A stretch of 64,000 nt of DNA, from assembly GCF_024223415.1 (NCBI RefSeq), contig NZ_CP100500.1. One strand, given 5' to 3'. The first letter of the stretch is position 1; each line of letters starts with the position of its first letter. Position numbers and translations under genes: made by a program. This DNA is from Escherichia coli (GTDB taxonomy: Bacteria > Pseudomonadota > Gammaproteobacteria > Enterobacterales > Enterobacteriaceae). This document shows, in pieces, positions 36,840 through 52,398 of the stretch. Below the pieces are notes generated by a model. That model saw nothing but the letters and a program-made list of their open reading frames with translations, did not search any database and was not told where the DNA came from.

Positions 36840-38062
36840 ATGTCGCAACCCTTACTGAAAGTAACCGACCTGGCAAAAAGCTTTTCCGGCGTATGGGCGC
36901 TGAGCAGCGCCCAGCTCACCGTCGGCACGGGTGAAATTCACGCTTTGCTGGGCGAAAACGGCGCTGGGAAATCCACGCTGTTGAAGGCACTCGCGGGCGC
37001 ACAGCCACAAACGCGCGGGGAGATCTGGTTCAATGGCGAAACGCTGCCGGTGGACGACTCCCCGGTAGAACGGCAGAACAAGGGCATTATCACCATCTAT
37101 CAGGAATTCAACCTGCTGCCCAATATGACCGTTGCGGAAAACATGTTTCTCGGACGCGAACCGCGTAAACGTAACCTGATCGTCGACGAAAAAGCGGTCA
37201 ATCAGGAAGCGCAGGTGATTCTCGATTATCTGCAGCTGAATGTCGCACCCACCACGCCAGTCGCCCGTCTGAGCGTGGCCCAGCAGCAGATGGTGGAGAT
37301 TGCCCGGGCGCTGACCCTCAATGCCAGGCTGATCATCATGGATGAACCCTCCGCCGCCCTGAGTGACAGCGAGGTGGAAAGCCTGCACCGCGTGGTGCGG
37401 GAGCTTAAAAACCGCGGCGTGAGCATTATTTACGTTACTCACCGTCTGCATGAAGTTTTCCAGCTTTGCGATCGTTTCACCGTTTTCCAGGATGGCCGTT
37501 TCACCGGCACCGGCGCAGTGACGGAGACGAACGTAGAGCAGTTGATCCGCCTGATGGTAGGGCGTGATGTGGCCTTTAACCGCCGCCCTGCCAGCGAAAC
37601 CCACCATGAAGACAAACCTGTCCGTTTGTCGGTGAAGGGGTTAAGCCGGGAAAAACCGCCGCTGGATCCACACGGCATCGCCCTGCATGACATCAGTTTT
37701 CACGTCCATGCAGGGGAAGTTCTGGGTATCGCTGGGCTGGTGGGGGCTGGTCGTACTGAGGTAGCGCGCTGCCTGTTTGGCGCCGACGCCTTTACCACCG
37801 GCAGCTTTGAGCTGGACGGCGTGCCGTACCAGCCGCGTGACCCACTTTATGCGCTGGAGCAAGGGCTGGCGCTGGTGCCGGAAGATCGCAAAAAAGAGGG
37901 GGCGGTGCTGGGTCTGTCGATTCGCGACAACCTGTCGCTCTCCTGCCTCTCCTCGCTGTTGCAGTGGCGCTGGTTTGTGAATACCCGCAAAGAGGACGAC
38001 CTGATTGAGTCCTACCGCCAGGCGCTGCAGATCAAAATGGTCAACAGCACGCAAGAGGTGCG
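36840..38062 (+). pseudogene. sugar ABC transporter ATP-binding protein (two-domain, RbsA-like), 3'-truncated by Mu-like prophage insertion
   Basis: First ABC domain complete (GENGAGKST…LSVAQQQMVEIARAL…IIMDEPSAAL); second domain stops after …QIKMVNSTQEV, before the expected LSGGNQQK signature; sequence from about 38063 is phage end. Confidence 0.75.
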
Positions 38063-38110
38063 TGATGCGCCGCGCGATAAATGCGCTCTATCTTGTGCGA
38101 TAAATGACAA
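38063..38110. repeat. Mu-type prophage end: terminal TG followed by two CGATAAATG-containing repeats (putative transposase-binding sites)
   Basis: tgatgcgccgcgcgataaatgcgctctatcttgtgcgataaatgaca; resembles recalled Mu attR terminus TGAAGCGGCGCACGAAAAACGCG and R-site core CGATAAATGCG. Confidence 0.5.
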
Positions 38111-38140
38111 CCAATCGGCGTTTCATTATTTGAAAAAGAA

Positions 38141-38520
38141 TTACATTTCAGGTTGCGTTATGACTGTCCCAGCGGGGTGATAGCGGTAGATCGTTGACAG
38201 TCCAATATCATAGATAATTACCAGCCGCTTTCTGTCATACCCTTTCTGGAGCAATCTTGCGATCTGCTCATGCTGCTCCTTCGTCAGTTTCGGGCGACGC
38301 CCTCCAACTCTCCCTTGTGCTCGCGCAGCAGTCAGTCCTGCCAGCGTGCGCTCAACTATCAGTTCACGTTCCATTTCTGCCAGTGCACCCATCATATGAA
38401 AAAAAGAACCTTCCCATCGGAGTGCTGGTATCGATTAAATCCGTCAGACTGCGAAAATTGACACCTTTTGCGCGTAGCTCTTCTGTGAGCGAAATGAGGT
38501 GTTTCATTCTTCTACCCAAC
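38141..38520 (-). pseudogene. Gin/Pin/Hin-family serine DNA invertase, N-terminally truncated and frameshifted
   Basis: …LISLTEELRAKGVNFRSLTDLIDTSTPMGRFFF then frame slips at A7 tract (38389-38395), continuing …MMGALAEMERELIVERTLAGLTAARAQGRVGGRRPKLT…; catalytic N-terminal about 60 aa missing. Confidence 0.7.
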
Positions 38521-38815
38521 CGTTACAGCTTCCAGACCACCAATGTATCCCCTCTTTTAAGGCACCTTAAAGCGCGTTTCAGGCCTGGTCGTTGCGACTT
38601 AGTTCCGCTCATTTGTCCTCAAAAATTTGTTCACATCCTGCGCACATTAATACATTGCGTTTTGGTCATTTGTTGACACACGTATGTAGCCAATCAGCAT
38701 CAAAAACACTCCCTTTTGAGTGGTTAAAGTAGTGAGATAATGTGGGGAAGATTTGAGAGATAACCCGCCCCCGCAATATCGCATTTAACTATATTGTGAG
38801 GGCGCGTGATACCGT

Positions 38816-45018: not shown

Positions 45019-45221
45019 GGGGCAATATCCTCTTCTGTACGGGCATCTTCAGCCTCAATAACCGGGATCAGTAACAACAACCCGGAGGGCAGCACCGGCG
45101 TGATAGCCACGTGCGGATTGGCTGCAATAATCCGGGGATAGCCCAGCGGGTCACCGTAGTACTGCCATGCCAGCGAATCCCAGCGCTCTCCGTCACGGGT
45201 AATATGTTCAAGAAACATCAC
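45006..45221 (-). CDS. phage tail protein X-like (LysM-like)
   Basis: 71 aa, …WDSLAWQYYGDPLGYPRIIAANPHV… resembles P2 gpX pattern. Confidence 0.6.
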   Translation of the reverse strand: MMFLEHITRDGERWDSLAWQYYGDPLGYPRIIAANPHVAITPVLPSGLLLLIPVIEAEDARTEEDIAPWLR

Positions 45222-46102
45222 ACACTCCTCGTCAGTATTCTGGCGGCCATTGCACTTAATCGCGGAGACATGCGGTTGAATGCTGTGCCGGCGGCGTTAA
45301 GCTGCCCGGAAACGGTATCCAGAGCACCTGCAATATTTCTTTTGTCCACACCACTCAGCGCAGACTGTGCCTGCTGTATATACGTGGCTGCTTCGCTGGC
45401 TGTTCTGGCCAGACTGATGGCATCGGGCATGGATTCAGAGAGTGCATTAAATGCCGGCACACTTTTCCCCAGAGCGCCGGATATATTACCCAGTCCGCTC
45501 ATCAGTCCCGGCACACGGGTCAGCGCGACAACGGGGTTATCCTTCATTTTCTGCGCCACCCGAACGGCACTGATGGTGGTCTGGAGTACAGACTGCGCCT
45601 GTTTCGCATAGTTGACACCGTTGCGGATGAACTGTGCCCCCCCGGAAGGCGATGGAACGGCACCAGATACGGCCCCGGCACCGGGAACCTGCCTGCGTAT
45701 TGCCGGTGGTTTCAGGGGATTCTTCGGGTCACCGGTGTATTCCCGGAGAGACACGGTTGCGCTGACAGCCAGTACGTTGCCGGTACTGTCAGTCTGCTCG
45801 CTGGTTGCAGTCACATCGGTAATCACGAACCAGGCGCGATAGTCACCGTTGCCGAAGACCAGCGCCAGTGCCTGATGGGCTTTCATGGCTGCCCGAAGTC
45901 TCGCCAGCTCCACGTCGGGCACACAATAATGCTGATGGAAGACCAGACTTATCTGGATTTCGTCCAGCCTGTCGCCGACGAACTGCAGACCGGGCTTACT
46001 CCCGATGCGGGCATGCTCCGCATAATCGACGCCAGACGTGGCCTCGAAGCCGTCCCAGTAGGTAATCAGCTCAAACTCAATATCACCCAGTACGGCAAAC
46101 AT
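45218..46102 (-). CDS. phage tail protein U-like / DNA circulation protein (Mu gp43-like)
   Basis: 294 aa directly downstream of tape measure gene; N-terminus MFAVLGDIEFELITY… gpU-like. Confidence 0.6.
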   Translation of the reverse strand: MFAVLGDIEFELITYWDGFEATSGVDYAEHARIGSKPGLQFVGDRLDEIQISLVFHQHYCVPDVELARLRAAMKAHQALALVFGNGDYRAWFVITDVTATSEQTDSTGNVLAVSATVSLREYTGDPKNPLKPPAIRRQVPGAGAVSGAVPSPSGGAQFIRNGVNYAKQAQSVLQTTISAVRVAQKMKDNPVVALTRVPGLMSGLGNISGALGKSVPAFNALSESMPDAISLARTASEAATYIQQAQSALSGVDKRNIAGALDTVSGQLNAAGTAFNRMSPRLSAMAARILTRSV

Positions 46103-49100
46103 CAGCGGTACTCCTTACGTTGTTTCTGAGCCAGCAGACGCTCCAGCATTTTTTCCAGCTCATGCAGACTCATATTCAGGGCACCAGTCAGTCCTGCAGG
46201 CGCTGTGGTTTCCCTGCCATTGAGGAAAAACTGAGGATTAAAGCTGACCTGGATACCACCAGACGTTCCACCGCCGGTTGCAGCTGCACCACGGCCTGAA
46301 TATCCGGCAGCCAGGATTTCAGGCGAGGGGATACGGGGAATATCCGGTGCCATCTCATTTGCCAGACGTTGCCCTGGTAAAATCGATGCCCGGGTGGAGA
46401 GCGGAATAGCGGGCATGGAAGACAAACTATTGATTACGGCTCCGATCGCATTTTTAGCAGACGACATAAACCCATTGATATCGGGCAACGGCATACTGAA
46501 GCGAACACCTGAAGTGTTATCCCGTATTTCTGGCCCCTGAATGCTCACGGGCATTTTGGGGAGCAGTTCACTGGCCATTCGCTGCCCGGCCAGAGCTGCA
46601 AGCGGAGTAGTCCGCTGCAGGCCAATGGCGGCCCCCTGCGCGATATTGTCGCCAAAGACCATAAACACGCGGCTCGGCGAATGAATGCCCAGCTTTTCGC
46701 TGAACCAGCCACTGATGCTGTCACCCATTCCGGTTACACTGGATTTGAGCGACTCCCATTTGTTTTTGATACCGTTAATCAGACCATCGACAAGATGGCC
46801 ACCGAAGTCGGTAAACTTTGCCGGCAGATCAACACCAAGATATTTCATCGCAGCTGCAAAGGCTTTATAGAGCAGACCTGCCGGCGACCAGTTAATCAGC
46901 AACTTACCAGTTCCCACAATGCCGCCGTTAAAGGCTTCCTGAATGTCAGCCCAGCACTGTTTAAACCAGCTACTGATGCTGTCACCCATTCCGGTTACAC
47001 TGGATTTGAGCGACCCCCATTTGTTTTTGATACCGTTAATCAGACCGTCGACAAGATGGCCACCGAAGTCGGTGAACTTTGCCGGCAGAGCAACGCCGAA
47101 ATATTTCAGCGCAGCTGCAAAGGCTTTATAGAGCAGGCCTGCCGGCGACCAGTTAATCAGCAACTTACCAGTTCCCACAATGCCGCCGTTAAAGGCTTCC
47201 TGAATGTCAGCCCAGCACTGTTTAAACCAGCTACTGATGCTGTCACCCATTCCGGTTACACTGGATTTGAGCGACCCCCATTTGTTTTTGATACCGTTAA
47301 TCAGACCGTCGACAAGATGGCCACCGAAGTCGGTGAACTTTGCCGGCAGAGCAACGCCGAAATATTTCAGCGCAGCTGCAAAGGCTTTATAGAGCAGGCC
47401 TGCCGGCGACCAGTTAATCAGCAACTTACCAGTTCCCACAATGCCGCCGTTAAAGGCTTCCTGAATGTCAGCCCAGCACTGTTTAAACCAGCTACTGATG
47501 CTGTCACCCATTCCGGTTACACTGGATTTGAGCGACCCCCATTTGTTTTTGATACCGTTAATCAGACCGTCGATAAGATGGCCACCGAAGTCGGTGAACT
47601 TTGCCGGCAGAGCAACGCCGAAATATTTCAGCGCAGCTGCAAAGGCTTTATAGAGCAGACCTGCCGGCGACCAGTTAATCAGCAGCTTACCAGTTCCCGC
47701 GATACCGCCGTTAAAGGCTTCCTGAATGTCAGCCCAGCGCTGTTTAAACCAGCCACTGACTGCCCCCCAGTTGCGGTAGATAAGGTAAGCTGCTGCCGCG
47801 ACAGCGGTGATAACGAGACCGATGGGATTCATCATCAGCGCCCGGCCAATCCAGAGAACGGCACGCCCGGCGATCATAATGCCGCGAACCAGTCCCCCGG
47901 AGAGCACACCACCCAGTGTTCTGACTCCTCTGGCGACGGCACCAAAGCCGGTCACCAACCAGCGAAGCTTACCGCCTTCCCCCAGTGCAAGCGTCAGACG
48001 AAGCCAGTTGGTCCGGAGTAAAACAGCAGTTTTCCAGACGTTCACAAAGGGGGAAATAAGGAGATTCAGCCCCAGTTTGAGACCAATAGTCGCTATCTTA
48101 ATCGCAAGGAGCGCACTGATGAGCTTAAAAGCCCCACTGACAAATTGCGGGTGAGTCGCCACCCAGTGTTTTGCCCCCTGAATGACTGGGATCAGCTCCT
48201 GAGTCAGAGAAATAAAAGAAGGGGCGAGCTGATCGCCCAGCGTAATAGCCAGATCGCGACTGCTGACCATAAGCGCTTTAGTGGCTTCAAGGGGAGATTT
48301 CAGCCGCTGATCGTAAGCACTGGCAAGCAAATCGTTATCCGCAGCCCTGAGAGCACCGGCACGGATCTCGCGATATCTGTCCATGTTGGCCAGCATCGGG
48401 CGGATAAATGCCATGACCTGCATATCCGCGAACATATCGCCCAGACCAAAGTTTTTCGCCAGAGCCTGAAGTGCCTCATCTCTTGCCGTATCATTCTTTA
48501 TTTTCATGGCGGATTTGAAGCCGGCCAGCGCTTCGGGGCTTTTGGCATTGAGGTAACGTTCTATAACACTCAACATCCCTTCAATCGGAGAGATCCCCGC
48601 AGCCTTATAACTCGCAACAGAACCCTGCAAATCAATACCCAGATCAGCAAACTGTTTCTGAGTATCGCGGGCAAAAATTTTGGTAAGAAAGTTTTTAAAA
48701 TTATTGGCTGCTTCGTCGGTGGAGCCCGCACCGATTTTTGCTACCTGGAGACTGGCCCCGATTTCAGCAACAGCCTCTTTTCCACTGGCAATACCCGCCA
48801 TCATTGGGGCCAGGGACTGCATCCACTTGACCTGATCCGGGATTTCAAATGACCCCTGGTCACCGGCATAAGCCATAATATTCTGGACGGCACTAAAATC
48901 TCTGGCGGCACCTTTCAGGGAGTTTTGCCAGACTGCGGCCACTTTTGCCCAGTCCTGAGATGACGTGCGTGTTGCCGTTGCCGCGCGGGCAATATCCGGC
49001 ATCAGAAAACCGATATCTGACAAGTTATCAATATTGTCGCTGATGAGCGAACCCACCGCCTCCTGCAGTTCATCCTGATACTGATTGTATTTTAGCGCCC

Positions 49101-49575
49101 AGCCTTTTATCTGTCCGGCAAGTGCATCCCGCGTTTTATTGTCATATTTTGCGGTGATCGACATATCAATCATTTTGTCCTGAAAAGACATGGACTGCTG
49201 AACGGCAGGGGAAACCGTATGATAAACAGTCTGTGCCATGCCATACGCTTCAATCCCCTGACCATACAGCGCCATGCGGTTAGCTTTCAGCGCATCACTG
49301 GTGGCTGATGCCGCTGACAGACGGCGCTGCTGGCGCTCAATTTGCTCCATGGTGCGGCTTACCCGCAGCAGCTCGCTGTTGAGATGCTGCATCCGGGAAG
49401 AGCCCAGTTGACCATAACGTTCTGTTGCACGGGTTAAAGCGTTCTGACGTTCCTGCAGGCGGCGTGAGGTATCGCTCAGGGAATCAAGCGCACGGCGGGT
49501 ACCGCTCATTGCAGAACGGAATGTGCTGCCAATCATCCCGCCGATAACAACGCCGACTGAAAACTGTCCCGACAT
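46102..49575 (-). CDS. tail tape measure protein with 87-aa internal tandem repeats
   Basis: 1158 aa from ATG 49573-49575 (GGAGG RBS 8 nt upstream); coiled-coil N-terminus, TM-like segments, repeats WFKQCWADIQEAFNGGIVGTGKLLINW…. Confidence 0.85.
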   Translation of the reverse strand: MSGQFSVGVVIGGMIGSTFRSAMSGTRRALDSLSDTSRRLQERQNALTRATERYGQLGSSRMQHLNSELLRVSRTMEQIERQQRRLSAASATSDALKANRMALYGQGIEAYGMAQTVYHTVSPAVQQSMSFQDKMIDMSITAKYDNKTRDALAGQIKGWALKYNQYQDELQEAVGSLISDNIDNLSDIGFLMPDIARAATATRTSSQDWAKVAAVWQNSLKGAARDFSAVQNIMAYAGDQGSFEIPDQVKWMQSLAPMMAGIASGKEAVAEIGASLQVAKIGAGSTDEAANNFKNFLTKIFARDTQKQFADLGIDLQGSVASYKAAGISPIEGMLSVIERYLNAKSPEALAGFKSAMKIKNDTARDEALQALAKNFGLGDMFADMQVMAFIRPMLANMDRYREIRAGALRAADNDLLASAYDQRLKSPLEATKALMVSSRDLAITLGDQLAPSFISLTQELIPVIQGAKHWVATHPQFVSGAFKLISALLAIKIATIGLKLGLNLLISPFVNVWKTAVLLRTNWLRLTLALGEGGKLRWLVTGFGAVARGVRTLGGVLSGGLVRGIMIAGRAVLWIGRALMMNPIGLVITAVAAAAYLIYRNWGAVSGWFKQRWADIQEAFNGGIAGTGKLLINWSPAGLLYKAFAAALKYFGVALPAKFTDFGGHLIDGLINGIKNKWGSLKSSVTGMGDSISSWFKQCWADIQEAFNGGIVGTGKLLINWSPAGLLYKAFAAALKYFGVALPAKFTDFGGHLVDGLINGIKNKWGSLKSSVTGMGDSISSWFKQCWADIQEAFNGGIVGTGKLLINWSPAGLLYKAFAAALKYFGVALPAKFTDFGGHLVDGLINGIKNKWGSLKSSVTGMGDSISSWFKQCWADIQEAFNGGIVGTGKLLINWSPAGLLYKAFAAAMKYLGVDLPAKFTDFGGHLVDGLINGIKNKWESLKSSVTGMGDSISGWFSEKLGIHSPSRVFMVFGDNIAQGAAIGLQRTTPLAALAGQRMASELLPKMPVSIQGPEIRDNTSGVRFSMPLPDINGFMSSAKNAIGAVINSLSSMPAIPLSTRASILPGQRLANEMAPDIPRIPSPEILAAGYSGRGAAATGGGTSGGIQVSFNPQFFLNGRETTAPAGLTGALNMSLHELEKMLERLLAQKQRKEYR
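46700..47760. repeat. 261-bp tandem repeat, about 4 copies, inside tape measure gene
   Basis: Near-identical 87-aa protein repeats; plus-strand shadow ORFs recur at 258-261 bp spacing (46685, 46943, 47204, 47465). Confidence 0.8.
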
Positions 49576-49650
49576 AGTGGTTAACCTCCGGGGAAGGTGA
49601 AAAGACGTGAGGGGATAACGCAGAACAGCCGCCACTGGCGGCTGTCTGTA

Positions 49651-49908
49651 CTACGATTTGTCGCCGTACTCGCTTTTGATTTGCTCTTCAGCCTGCTCCA
49701 GCCACATCTCCAGATCGTCAGTATCGAGGGCATCAATCTCCCCCGGCTGAAACCGGAACCATCTCGCCAGCAGCCCCTGCGCCTGCGTCAGCGCCCTGGT
49801 TGCTCTCACCCATCCCCGTGATGAGCTGAAATCGTTTCTGTAACTGCAGGTAATCAGCCAGATCCATATTGTCGAGATCTTCCGGGAGAAGACCAGTACT
49901 GCGGGCAA
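49651..49908 (-). CDS. frameshift extension ORF of tail assembly chaperone (GT/E'-like)
   Basis: Overlaps 49733-50068 in +1/-2 frame; C-terminal …EIDALDTDDLEMWLEQAEEQIKSEYGDKS ends 75 bp before tape measure start; G5 run at overlap end. Confidence 0.4.
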   Translation of the reverse strand: MPAVLVFSRKISTIWIWLITCSYRNDFSSSRGWVRATRALTQAQGLLARWFRFQPGEIDALDTDDLEMWLEQAEEQIKSEYGDKS

Positions 49909-50068
49909 TCAGCGGTTCGTCCCAGTCTGCCGGGTTTTTGCTGATTTTGCGCACCTGCTTCAGGTCTTTTACCGTCAGGCGTTTCAGTTCAACCTGCTCA
50001 ATTCTGGTGCCTGCAGCAGTGGTGAAGGGATAAGACAATTTAAAAGTATCGGATGGGGTCTGTGACAT
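49733..50068 (-). CDS. tail assembly chaperone (G/E-like)
   Basis: 111 aa acidic protein immediately upstream of tape measure gene; overlapped by ORF 49651-49908 in another frame. Confidence 0.55.
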   Translation of the reverse strand: MSQTPSDTFKLSYPFTTAAGTRIEQVELKRLTVKDLKQVRKISKNPADWDEPLIARSTGLLPEDLDNMDLADYLQLQKRFQLITGMGESNQGADAGAGAAGEMVPVSAGGD

Positions 50069-50449: not shown

Positions 50450-50971
50450 TCAGCCTCCGATATTGATACGGTAGTCAGTCAGTTGATCAACGCCACCGAC
50501 GCGGAAGATGTTAGCCAGGTAGTCCAGTTGCAGCAGCTCTTCACCATCCAGTACCTGTCTGATATACGTGCAGGTGAAGCTACTGGAGAACTCGGCGTTC
50601 TCGTGCTGTTTGAACGTCCCCAGCGGGTTCTTCTTGAACATAATCGTCAGGAAGGTGACCAGCGGGATTTCGTCAATCAGCCCCTGCGAGCTGTAGCGCT
50701 GGACGCTGGAGCGACACTGCAGTGCCAGAGACCTGTACGGGTTCGCGACAGACAGCATCGCATCGCGGTAAAAGCTGTTCCATTTGATTTCGCCTTCCAG
50801 TTTGTCAAAACCAGCCGGGAGTTCCACCTTACCCACCATCCCCAGCGCCTTGTGTTCCTGCATAATCATGGAGACATCGGGGAGTTTAACTTCCTCAGCC
50901 CGTCCCAGCAGGTTAGTACCATCCAGATAGATGTTGGCATTCGTGATGCGGTTTATCTCAATCTTTGACAT
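50450..50971 (-). CDS. major tail tube protein
   Basis: 173 aa directly downstream of sheath gene (stop/start overlap), size and synteny of contractile-tail tube proteins. Confidence 0.8.
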   Translation of the reverse strand: MSKIEINRITNANIYLDGTNLLGRAEEVKLPDVSMIMQEHKALGMVGKVELPAGFDKLEGEIKWNSFYRDAMLSVANPYRSLALQCRSSVQRYSSQGLIDEIPLVTFLTIMFKKNPLGTFKQHENAEFSSSFTCTYIRQVLDGEELLQLDYLANIFRVGGVDQLTDYRINIGG

Positions 50972-52398
50972 CAGTTGCCCCCTTTCAGGGTTAACAGGTA
51001 TTCCGAGGTGATCTCAGTCTCATACGTCAGTCGCTCCAGCGGTGGCGGCGGCGTGTATTTGTAGCTCAGCAACAGGTGACCGGCTGCCAGTTCCGTCTCC
51101 GGATTACGGGCCGGATCAAACCAGCAGTTGAAACCCAGCAGCGCACCATCACTAATCATCTTTCGACCGTAGGCGTTGACCGACTCCGTCAGTGCATCAA
51201 TCAGCGCCTGAGTAATCGGCATGTCGATGTACTGCTGACTGAAGTAACGAATGGACTCGTTGATCACATCACCGGTGCGGCGAACGTTCTCAAAGTTACG
51301 CATATGGGTGACCGTTGGCCATGCTGCCGTCCGGTTACCCCACAGACGAAGGCCGCTGCCATAACTGCTGAATACCGTGGTGATCCCCTGTTCGTTAAGC
51401 AGGTTCACCTCACTCTGCGGGTCATCAATCATCGCGGACAGCTGGCGCTCCACACCGGTGATCCCCAGAATCTCCTGATTGGAGGACGACCACCAGTAGC
51501 CCTTGTCCAGATCGACTCTGGCACGCAGACCTGCTGCACGCTGGCTGAGCGGCTCCAGACGCTCCGTGTTTGTCACCGGGTCATATACCTTCACATGCGG
51601 ATAGCACAGACGGACGCGGTCGGAGCTGGTATTGAAGTTAATGGTGCCTTCCGGGCCACGACCTGCCAGAGCCTGTGCAAAGGTGGTACCGACAGGCGCA
51701 TCAATGTAGGTTACCGCGCCCAGCTTCTCTGTCATGGCGATAAGCTCAACTGCGACACTCTTCTGGGTGCAGAACACCGGCGCAATCAGAATTTTGGCAA
51801 AATAGCCGTACAGGTTGAAGCTGTCGTTAAGCAGCTTCATGCCGGTTCGGTTTCCGGCGCTGTTCACCCCGCCGATGATGTCCGCCGCAGTCACCTTCGA
51901 CGGGTCCGCGTACTCATAGCTCACCTTCACGCTGCCACTGGCCTCAATAGCCTTGCCCAGGTTCGTGAGCACACCCGTCTGCGCATCAACACGGTAGTCC
52001 GTGTTCGCCGTGTGGGTGGTGCTGCCTTCACTGTTTTTCACCACCACATTAGCGACAACCGGATGCGCCAGTCTGGCCTGCCCTGTCGATTTGTCAAAGG
52101 TAACCACTTCACCCTGGATCGCCGTTTTATGTTTCGCCGGGTCGAGGACGTTAATGACCAGAACGGTGCCTGCACCATGGTCATAAATCGCATCCAGCGC
52201 CTGCGGAATGGTAAAGCCGGTGAACTGGCTGCCAAATGCCGCTGCGTCTTTCTCAGACAGGCACTGTACCAGCGTATTGACGTCCCCCATCGGGGCGGTA
52301 CCAATCAGGCCAATAACGGCAGATTTCACCGTTTTAACCGGGCGGGCTCCGTTTTCCACCTCAATGGTTTCGACGCCATGCAGATAGTTAGCTGCCAT
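50971..52398 (-). CDS. tail sheath protein
   Basis: 475 aa, synteny and size. Confidence 0.85.
   Translation of the reverse strand: MAANYLHGVETIEVENGARPVKTVKSAVIGLIGTAPMGDVNTLVQCLSEKDAAAFGSQFTGFTIPQALDAIYDHGAGTVLVINVLDPAKHKTAIQGEVVTFDKSTGQARLAHPVVANVVVKNSEGSTTHTANTDYRVDAQTGVLTNLGKAIEASGSVKVSYEYADPSKVTAADIIGGVNSAGNRTGMKLLNDSFNLYGYFAKILIAPVFCTQKSVAVELIAMTEKLGAVTYIDAPVGTTFAQALAGRGPEGTINFNTSSDRVRLCYPHVKVYDPVTNTERLEPLSQRAAGLRARVDLDKGYWWSSSNQEILGITGVERQLSAMIDDPQSEVNLLNEQGITTVFSSYGSGLRLWGNRTAAWPTVTHMRNFENVRRTGDVINESIRYFSQQYIDMPITQALIDALTESVNAYGRKMISDGALLGFNCWFDPARNPETELAAGHLLLSYKYTPPPPLERLTYETEITSEYLLTLKGGN

Follow-up and report, generated by a model that had tools for sequence, protein, structure and literature searches.

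In-frame copy-number variation of an 87-residue repeat in the tape measure protein of a Mu-like Escherichia coli prophage

Shortening or lengthening phage lambda's tail tape measure protein (TMP) changes the length of the tail in proportion (Katsura and Hendrix, as recounted in PMC3271669), and in TP901-1 a 29% deletion or insertion in the TMP gave tails about 30% shorter or longer, a deletion series that included the hydrophobic region having taken the tail from 118 nm down to 65 nm, with approximately 810 of the 937 TMP residues counting towards length (PMC5099701). The tube of T4 polymerises around gp29 (PMC8718954). Repetitive TMPs have also been described, in which 11-residue units marked by aromatic residues form variable tandem repeats that evolve by duplication and loss (Belcaid, Bergeron and Poisson 2011, PMC3271669). 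Here we report on 64,000 nucleotides of Escherichia coli DNA (contig NZ_CP100500.1 of assembly GCF_024223415.1; this whole stretch is called the window), in which the TMP gene of a Mu-like, contractile-tailed prophage carries four near-identical tandem copies of a 261-bp unit that encodes 87 residues, and on the variation of that array, from one copy to four, among E. coli genomes.

Like the Belcaid-type and TP901-1 proteins, this TMP contains variable tandem repeats, a feature proposed to allow changes in tail length (PMC3271669; PMC5099701), but its unit has 87 residues against 11 or 18 in those, and its copies are recent (0-15 nt apart), whereas theirs are ancient and degenerate. A search of the window TMP for Belcaid-type patterns ([FW]-x10 seven times; 11-11-18) gave no match, not even three consecutive occurrences of [FW]-x10. 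The natural two-, three- and four-copy alleles are in-frame internal length changes, as are the engineered variants of lambda gpH, the TP901-1 TMP and T4 gp29; those constructs were made in the laboratory and their tails were measured, while the E. coli alleles are natural.

Tandem Repeats Finder reported a single array (period 261, 4.0 copies, 97% matches, zero indels, score 1988), and a second repeat search put the four copies at intervals of exactly 261 bp, in agreement with the first-pass annotation of the window, which had noticed about four near-perfect copies at about 46700-47760 and had quoted an 87-residue unit (WFKQCWADIQ...GMGDSISS) that correctly translates units 2 and 3, as numbered here in gene order on the minus strand. 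The array, in frame within the open reading frame (ORF) 46102-49635, is bounded at both ends by the 13-mer TCAGTGGCTGGTT (46703-46715 and 47747-47759), its three internal junctions read TCAGTAGCTGGTT, and the five matches at these boundary and junction sites compare with 0 expected by chance. An array of this kind cannot be produced by chance. Units 2 and 3 have the same DNA sequence, the longest exact repeat within the array is 436 bp, and removal of unit 3 from the window gene yields exactly the 1070-residue allele P0011. The coordinates of the units and of the other features are collected in the table below.

That the gene is a tape measure gene, as had been proposed from the sequence, is borne out by a PF10145 match over aa 159-345 (72.4 bits; cut-off 33.2), a TIGR01760 match over aa 120-493 (57.6 bits; cut-off 28.8), matches to the tape measure families PHROG 28, 794 and 5690 (E=1.5e-131 for PHROG 28) and the order of the neighbouring genes. 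Translation likely starts at the ATG given in the table, which has a GGAGG ribosome-binding site 9 nt upstream and gives an extent that matches the RefSeq annotation of the orthologue in strain LR-31; the exact protein is on record as WP_180200967.1. With TMPs of the TP901 and P2 gpT type it shares the N-terminal core covered by both models and the place of its gene, which follows the frameshifted chaperone and precedes gpU and gpD; the protein is long and contains internal hydrophobic segments. The two hydrophobic segments, at aa 478-508 and 579-600 in a Kyte-Doolittle scan, directly precede the array, which begins nine residues past the second of them and lies 200 residues from the C-terminus. 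The nearest isolated relatives have TMPs of 842-988 residues, and the window protein is longer than these because it holds three extra near-identical copies of one module. An older, diverged duplication was also found in the C-terminal part, with a local alignment score of 56 against a mean of 26.9 (sd 5.1, maximum 45) for shuffled sequences. In this region (aa 989-1087) a segment of about 70 residues, bounded by the similar motifs GQRMASELLPKMPVSIQGPEI and GQRLANEMAPDIPRIPSPEI, is lacking from the one-copy TMP of the type found in strain 8178, where the alignment has a gap, and is a second, older length polymorphism of the protein.

The TMP gene is carried by 635 of 5426 complete E. coli genomes, and a systematic sample of 60 of the 635 records, taken down the ranking, contained four copies in one record (span 3534 bp), three copies in 13 (3270-3273 bp), two copies in 40 (3009-3013 bp) and the one-copy type in four (2454 bp), the two others being partial records with no span. 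A comparison with homologous tape measure genes, which the first-pass annotation had advised, thus returned natural alleles at every step from one copy to four. Alleles with different copy numbers can be almost identical elsewhere in the gene: SCU-101, with three copies, differs from Ecol_745 and CE10, with two, by no more than 8-9 nt in the 2430 that lie outside the array, and EC11 (three copies) differs from the ST131 strain 5506 (two copies) at 12 of 2430 nt. In strain 8178, representing the one-copy type (821 aa), the single unit is 86% identical to that of the window. We put at roughly 0.8 the probability that this in-frame, 87-residue copy-number polymorphism in the TMP of Mu-like phages is real and heritable, a figure that holds jointly for the polymorphism, its generation by recombination and its predicted consequence for tail length.

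The module itself is widespread. Among 1.84 billion proteins, 583 representatives match the 87-residue unit at E<=1e-3, and the unit has the strongly conserved pattern F..W....AF.GGI.G...LI.NWSPLGLFY.AFA.V...FG..LP..FT.FG...I.GL..GI, with two invariant prolines. It was found in 136 phage records, once per TMP, among them 74 from Burkholderia, 47 from Ralstonia and eight from Pseudomonas. Myophages of Burkholderia and Ralstonia (the Bcepmuvirus phiE255, with E=1.7e-199 by phmmer; KS14 and phiE12-2, which are P2-like) have in their TMPs the same module, of 84-87 residues, in the same relative place, followed by a weak, degenerate half-module and the same C-terminal region, just as the window TMP does after its fourth copy. 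The difference lies in number, since phiE255, KS14 and phiE12-2 have exactly one full module each, against two to four copies, 94-100% identical, in the E. coli lineage. Some distant TMPs contain two to five full or partial modules. Partial hidden Markov model matches spaced 42-46 residues apart in such distant proteins had raised the idea that the unit consists of two homologous halves, which we rejected, given that the halves align no better than shuffled sequences do (score 24; shuffles averaging 21, sd 4); the spaced matches indicate that half-modules can duplicate separately in other lineages.

With regard to the origin of the array, the module, a conserved part of this TMP family, was ancestrally single in it, and the first duplication probably took place between short direct repeats that flank it. 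A candidate for the site of this first, illegitimate event is the flanking 13-mer, which the one-copy allele has in imperfect form (TCAGTAGCTGGTT and TCAGTGACTGGTT). Later unequal homologous recombination and gene conversion between the 261-bp units have then shifted the count among two, three and four, as the comparison of alleles shows. The middle unit of SCU-101 is composed of the 5' part of a last-type unit and the 3' part of a first-type unit, which is what an unequal crossover of misaligned two-copy arrays should yield, and more than ten three-copy architectures can be told apart at the protein level, each built from the outer units of its own lineage and some differing only in the crossover point. 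Middle units are mosaics assembled from the adjacent ones, a hallmark of unequal crossing-over. Both middle units of the four-copy assembly GCA_013421655.1 (L019) have a C-to-T change at unit position 93; in another, GCA_958326765.1 (L020), the third unit alone has it, and in the window neither middle unit does (gene nt 2178 and 2439 of L019 and L020, equivalent to window positions 47398 and 47137). This distribution points to gene conversion, to concerted evolution or to repeated exchanges inside the array.

If the TMP serves as a ruler on which the tube and sheath of the tail assemble, every additional unit would probably lengthen the tail by about 13 nm, or about three tube and sheath rings. 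For phiE12-2, whose TMP of 988 residues carries the module and whose contractile tail measures approximately 152 nm (PMC2920897), the ratio is 1.54 Å per residue, a value from one calibrating relative that would make the increment about 13.4 nm and predicts tails of about 126, 151, 165 and 178 nm for one, two, three and four copies. At 1.5 Å per residue and with published ring rises of 38.5-42.8 Å, one unit would correspond to 3.0-3.4 rings of the tube. The first-pass annotation had stated that a change in copy number would directly alter particle morphology; we infer, on the good grounds offered by the ruler experiments in lambda, TP901-1 and T4, that it would alter tail length.

The count of four might be questioned as an artefact of assembly, the true number in the source strain having been expanded or collapsed. 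Units 2 and 3 do not differ, the longest exact repeat exceeds the length of short reads, and the array is known to defeat assemblies: in the record of Escherichia phage PhiKM, the closest isolated phage, the TMP gene is split by a 'sequencing gap' located exactly in the array (L001 12627-12953, equivalent to window positions 46954-47661), which hides the copy number. Moreover, 11 draft contigs (L008-L018) that match the window TMP outside the array (100% identity; 0-1 single-nucleotide polymorphisms, SNPs) carry units 1-2-4 or 1-4, as collapse would give. Nevertheless, four copies recur in independent assemblies. LR-31, a complete genome, has four units that are all distinct; L019, a contig of 1.37 Mb with 10 SNPs in 21.5 kb relative to the window and another host flank, has four and encodes the identical 1157-residue protein; in L020, which also has four, units 2 and 3 differ at two sites; and the exact protein is recorded from three contigs, one of them a chromosome of 5.56 Mb. 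A divergent allele, WP_113383342.1, with 41 amino acid differences, has four copies and its own type of middle unit, so that four copies arose at least twice. Furthermore, the usual error at such an array is collapse, not expansion, and because collapse lowers the count, four would be a minimum rather than an excess. These assemblies answer the concern about an artefact raised in the first-pass annotation, and we regard such an origin of the four-copy count as very unlikely. The presence of the four-copy phage at different chromosomal sites with near-identical sequence would reflect recent lysogenisations, and hence workable virions.

Granting four real copies, their number might have no effect on tail length, the module acting elsewhere, for example in chaperone binding or, after ejection, in a membrane or periplasm conduit, with the extra copies being packed or tolerated and the number of rings unchanged. 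Such a role would fit the strong conservation of the module across hundreds of TMP families, with its invariant prolines and WSP motif, its place directly after hydrophobic segments thought to act at the membrane, and the proposal that TMPs form a conduit into the cell (PMC8718954), and the structure model of the unit is uninformative on the point. However, in-frame internal deletions and duplications altered tail length proportionately in every system tested, the length-changing deletions in TP901-1 included the hydrophobic region next to the repeats (PMC5099701), and the array lies within the span equivalent to the residues that count towards length in that phage, which makes a module without influence on length unlikely. 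The first-pass annotation had also left it undecided whether the tail belongs to a virion or to a tailocin, that is, a headless particle resembling an R-type bacteriocin. The tail module resembles that of P2, and R-type pyocins derive from modules of this kind; the early region of the prophage also lies outside the window. But portal (Portal_Mu, E=1.7e-90), Mu F-like, capsid-region and terminase genes stand directly upstream of the tail genes in the same orientation, and Phage_Mu_F and Mu_Gp36 are present in identical relatives. In addition, the relative in LR-31 possesses a DDE transposase and the whole layout of a Mu-like phage, PhiKM, whose DNA is 94-96% identical over the late region, was isolated as a phage, and the element combines varied insertion sites with a conserved TG end. 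The virion part of the proposal therefore stands, while the tailocin part is hardly tenable.

Some observations count against the preferred explanation, in which a heritable polymorphism, generated by recombination, would set the length of a phage tail. Two copies are by far the commonest state in complete genomes and four are rare, so four copies may carry a mild cost, and in TP901-1 some repeat deletions lower infectivity, so a change of length is not always neutral (PMC5099701). The strongly conserved motifs NWSP.GL and LP.KF..FG suggest a specific interaction rather than a plain spacer, and the assumption of an extended helix at 1.5 Å per residue gains little weight from the AlphaFold model of the unit, which is approximately 85% helical at low confidence (pLDDT 58). 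Finally, the two- and three-copy alleles of the window's own sub-lineage all come from fragmented drafts and have the form that repeat collapse would produce. Two of these, P0018 and P0011, 100% identical to the window outside the array, were considered as a recent allelic series and set aside as possibly collapsed, because the fragmented drafts also break in the tail-fibre repeat (most of the 11 contigs end approximately 280 nt into the tail-fibre gene) and their unit sets look like collapse of the assembly graph. For this polymorphism, variation was accordingly demonstrated with complete genomes, copy numbers from drafts being unreliable at the array. Private non-synonymous changes occur in both middle units of the four-copy LR-31 gene: unit 2 has Y34C, F44L and A47E, and unit 3 has P49L, at a residue that is invariant in the family alignment. 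They may be real or may be errors of a long-read consensus.

Features of the prophage tail region in the window, with coordinates in nucleotides of the window and residues of the TMP
Feature	Coordinates	Strand	Remarks
Mu-like (Bcepmuvirus-like) prophage	38064-64000	-	Visible part; continues past the end of the window
gpU-like tail protein gene	45218-46102	-	PF06995; immediately downstream of the TMP gene
TMP gene	46102-49575	-	1157 aa; ATG at 49575
Older diverged duplication of about 70 aa, C-terminal part	46315-46611	-	aa 989-1017 resemble aa 1060-1087
Tandem array	46703-47759	-	4 x 261 bp plus terminal 13 bp; aa 609-956
Unit 4 (last-type)	46708-46968	-	aa 870-956; 10 nt and 5 aa changes relative to units 2 and 3
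Unit 3	46969-47229	-	aa 783-869; same as unit 2
Unit 2 (mosaic middle unit)	47230-47490	-	aa 696-782; same as unit 3
Unit 1 (first-type)	47491-47751	-	aa 609-695; 7 nt and 3 aa changes relative to units 2 and 3
Region with the two hydrophobic segments	47776-48144	-	Kyte-Doolittle scan; directly precedes the array
Tail assembly chaperone gene (Phage_TAC_7)	49733-50068	-	Overlapping downstream-frame ORF 49651-49908
Tail tube gene	50450-50971	-	Contractile tail; PF04985, PF04984 and PF17482 over sheath and tube genes
Tail sheath gene	50971-52398	-	Contractile tail; PF04985, PF04984 and PF17482 over sheath and tube genes

As far as the window shows, the element is a complete Mu-like prophage with a contractile tail. 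From Pfam matches and the annotation of relatives, the genes on the minus strand follow the order sheath, tube, Phage_TAC_7 chaperone, TMP, gpU-like protein, gpX and gpD, and after gpD come the baseplate genes V, W, J and I, then a tail fibre and a fibre assembly protein on the same strand. The overlapping frames at the chaperone (49651-50068) resemble the arrangement for programmed frameshifting in P2 (E/E+E'), and relatives are annotated with a 'GpE family' ORF. PhiKM (PQ738613), which is classified in Bcepmuvirus and came from uropathogenic E. coli, has the same gene order; our literature searches found no paper on this phage. The prophage end starts with TGATGCGCCGCGCGATAAATGC at 38064, homology to the host (iol cluster) stopping at 38063, and the same TG-initiated end (TGATGCG...) has four host flanks unrelated to one another, those of the window, L019, L008 and LR-31, as expected for a transposable phage. 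In the window the insertion is within an iol-cluster gene for a sugar ABC-transporter ATPase, and the ORF 36840-38180 (+) continues into the phage DNA, where it stops; related phages are inserted in yejF (LR-31, which has a different tail fibre) and elsewhere. By the tail-fibre genes, a serine invertase of the Gin/Hin type (38141-38784, -) has decayed into three out-of-frame pieces, an N-terminus (MLIGYIRVSTNDQ...), a middle part and an HTH_7 C-terminus, and the same fragments are found in L008 and L019. Any fibre-switching system at this place is probably dead.

The array also has consequences for automated annotation. RefSeq (PGAP) splits the three-copy TMP gene of SCU-101 (L004 1001-4213) and of AVS0754 (L025 501-3713) into two 'incomplete' pseudogene fragments, although the ORF of 3213 nt is intact in both, with a single stop at its end, and the call looks like an artefact of the variable repeat. 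Since the array collapses or breaks short-read assemblies and the NCBI pipeline calls intact three-copy genes pseudogenes, calls of prophage intactness at this locus are unreliable. The lengths of proteins in databases were rejected as a census of copy number; a first listing showed representatives with two and three copies only, which is misleading because four-copy members sit in a cluster whose representative has 983 residues. We likewise rejected as a gene the antisense ORF 46681-48021 (+, 446 aa), which spans the array and obtains whole-protein E-values as low as 5.6e-10 in Pfam (IpaB_EvcA, above its cut-off) because weak matches are summed over the four repeats, no single stretch being significant in Pfam; it is an artefact of a repeated frame free of stops, whose summed score could mislead automated annotation.

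Changes in TMP length driven by repeats are already established and the gene is routinely annotated as a TMP, so the array in E. coli is an ordinary kind of feature, newly and well resolved here; our literature searches found no earlier description of an 87-residue copy-number series in the Mu-like prophages of E. coli. A bolder view would make the array a fast-switching dial of tail length, in which recombination between units, especially during the replicative growth of Mu-type phages, would mix phages with two, three and four copies, and the thickness of capsule or O-antigen would then select tail lengths according to E. coli lineage. We consider this decidedly unlikely, but if it held, nature would have set up at this locus a population-wide experiment on the reasons why tail length matters. 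The evidence for TMPs as rulers comes from a few engineered mutants, nearly all of them in non-contractile phages, and the present locus offers a natural allelic series of one to four copies in a contractile-tailed phage that is carried by about one in ten complete E. coli genomes, including those of ST131, in which the relation between tail length and TMP length would be measurable without engineering.

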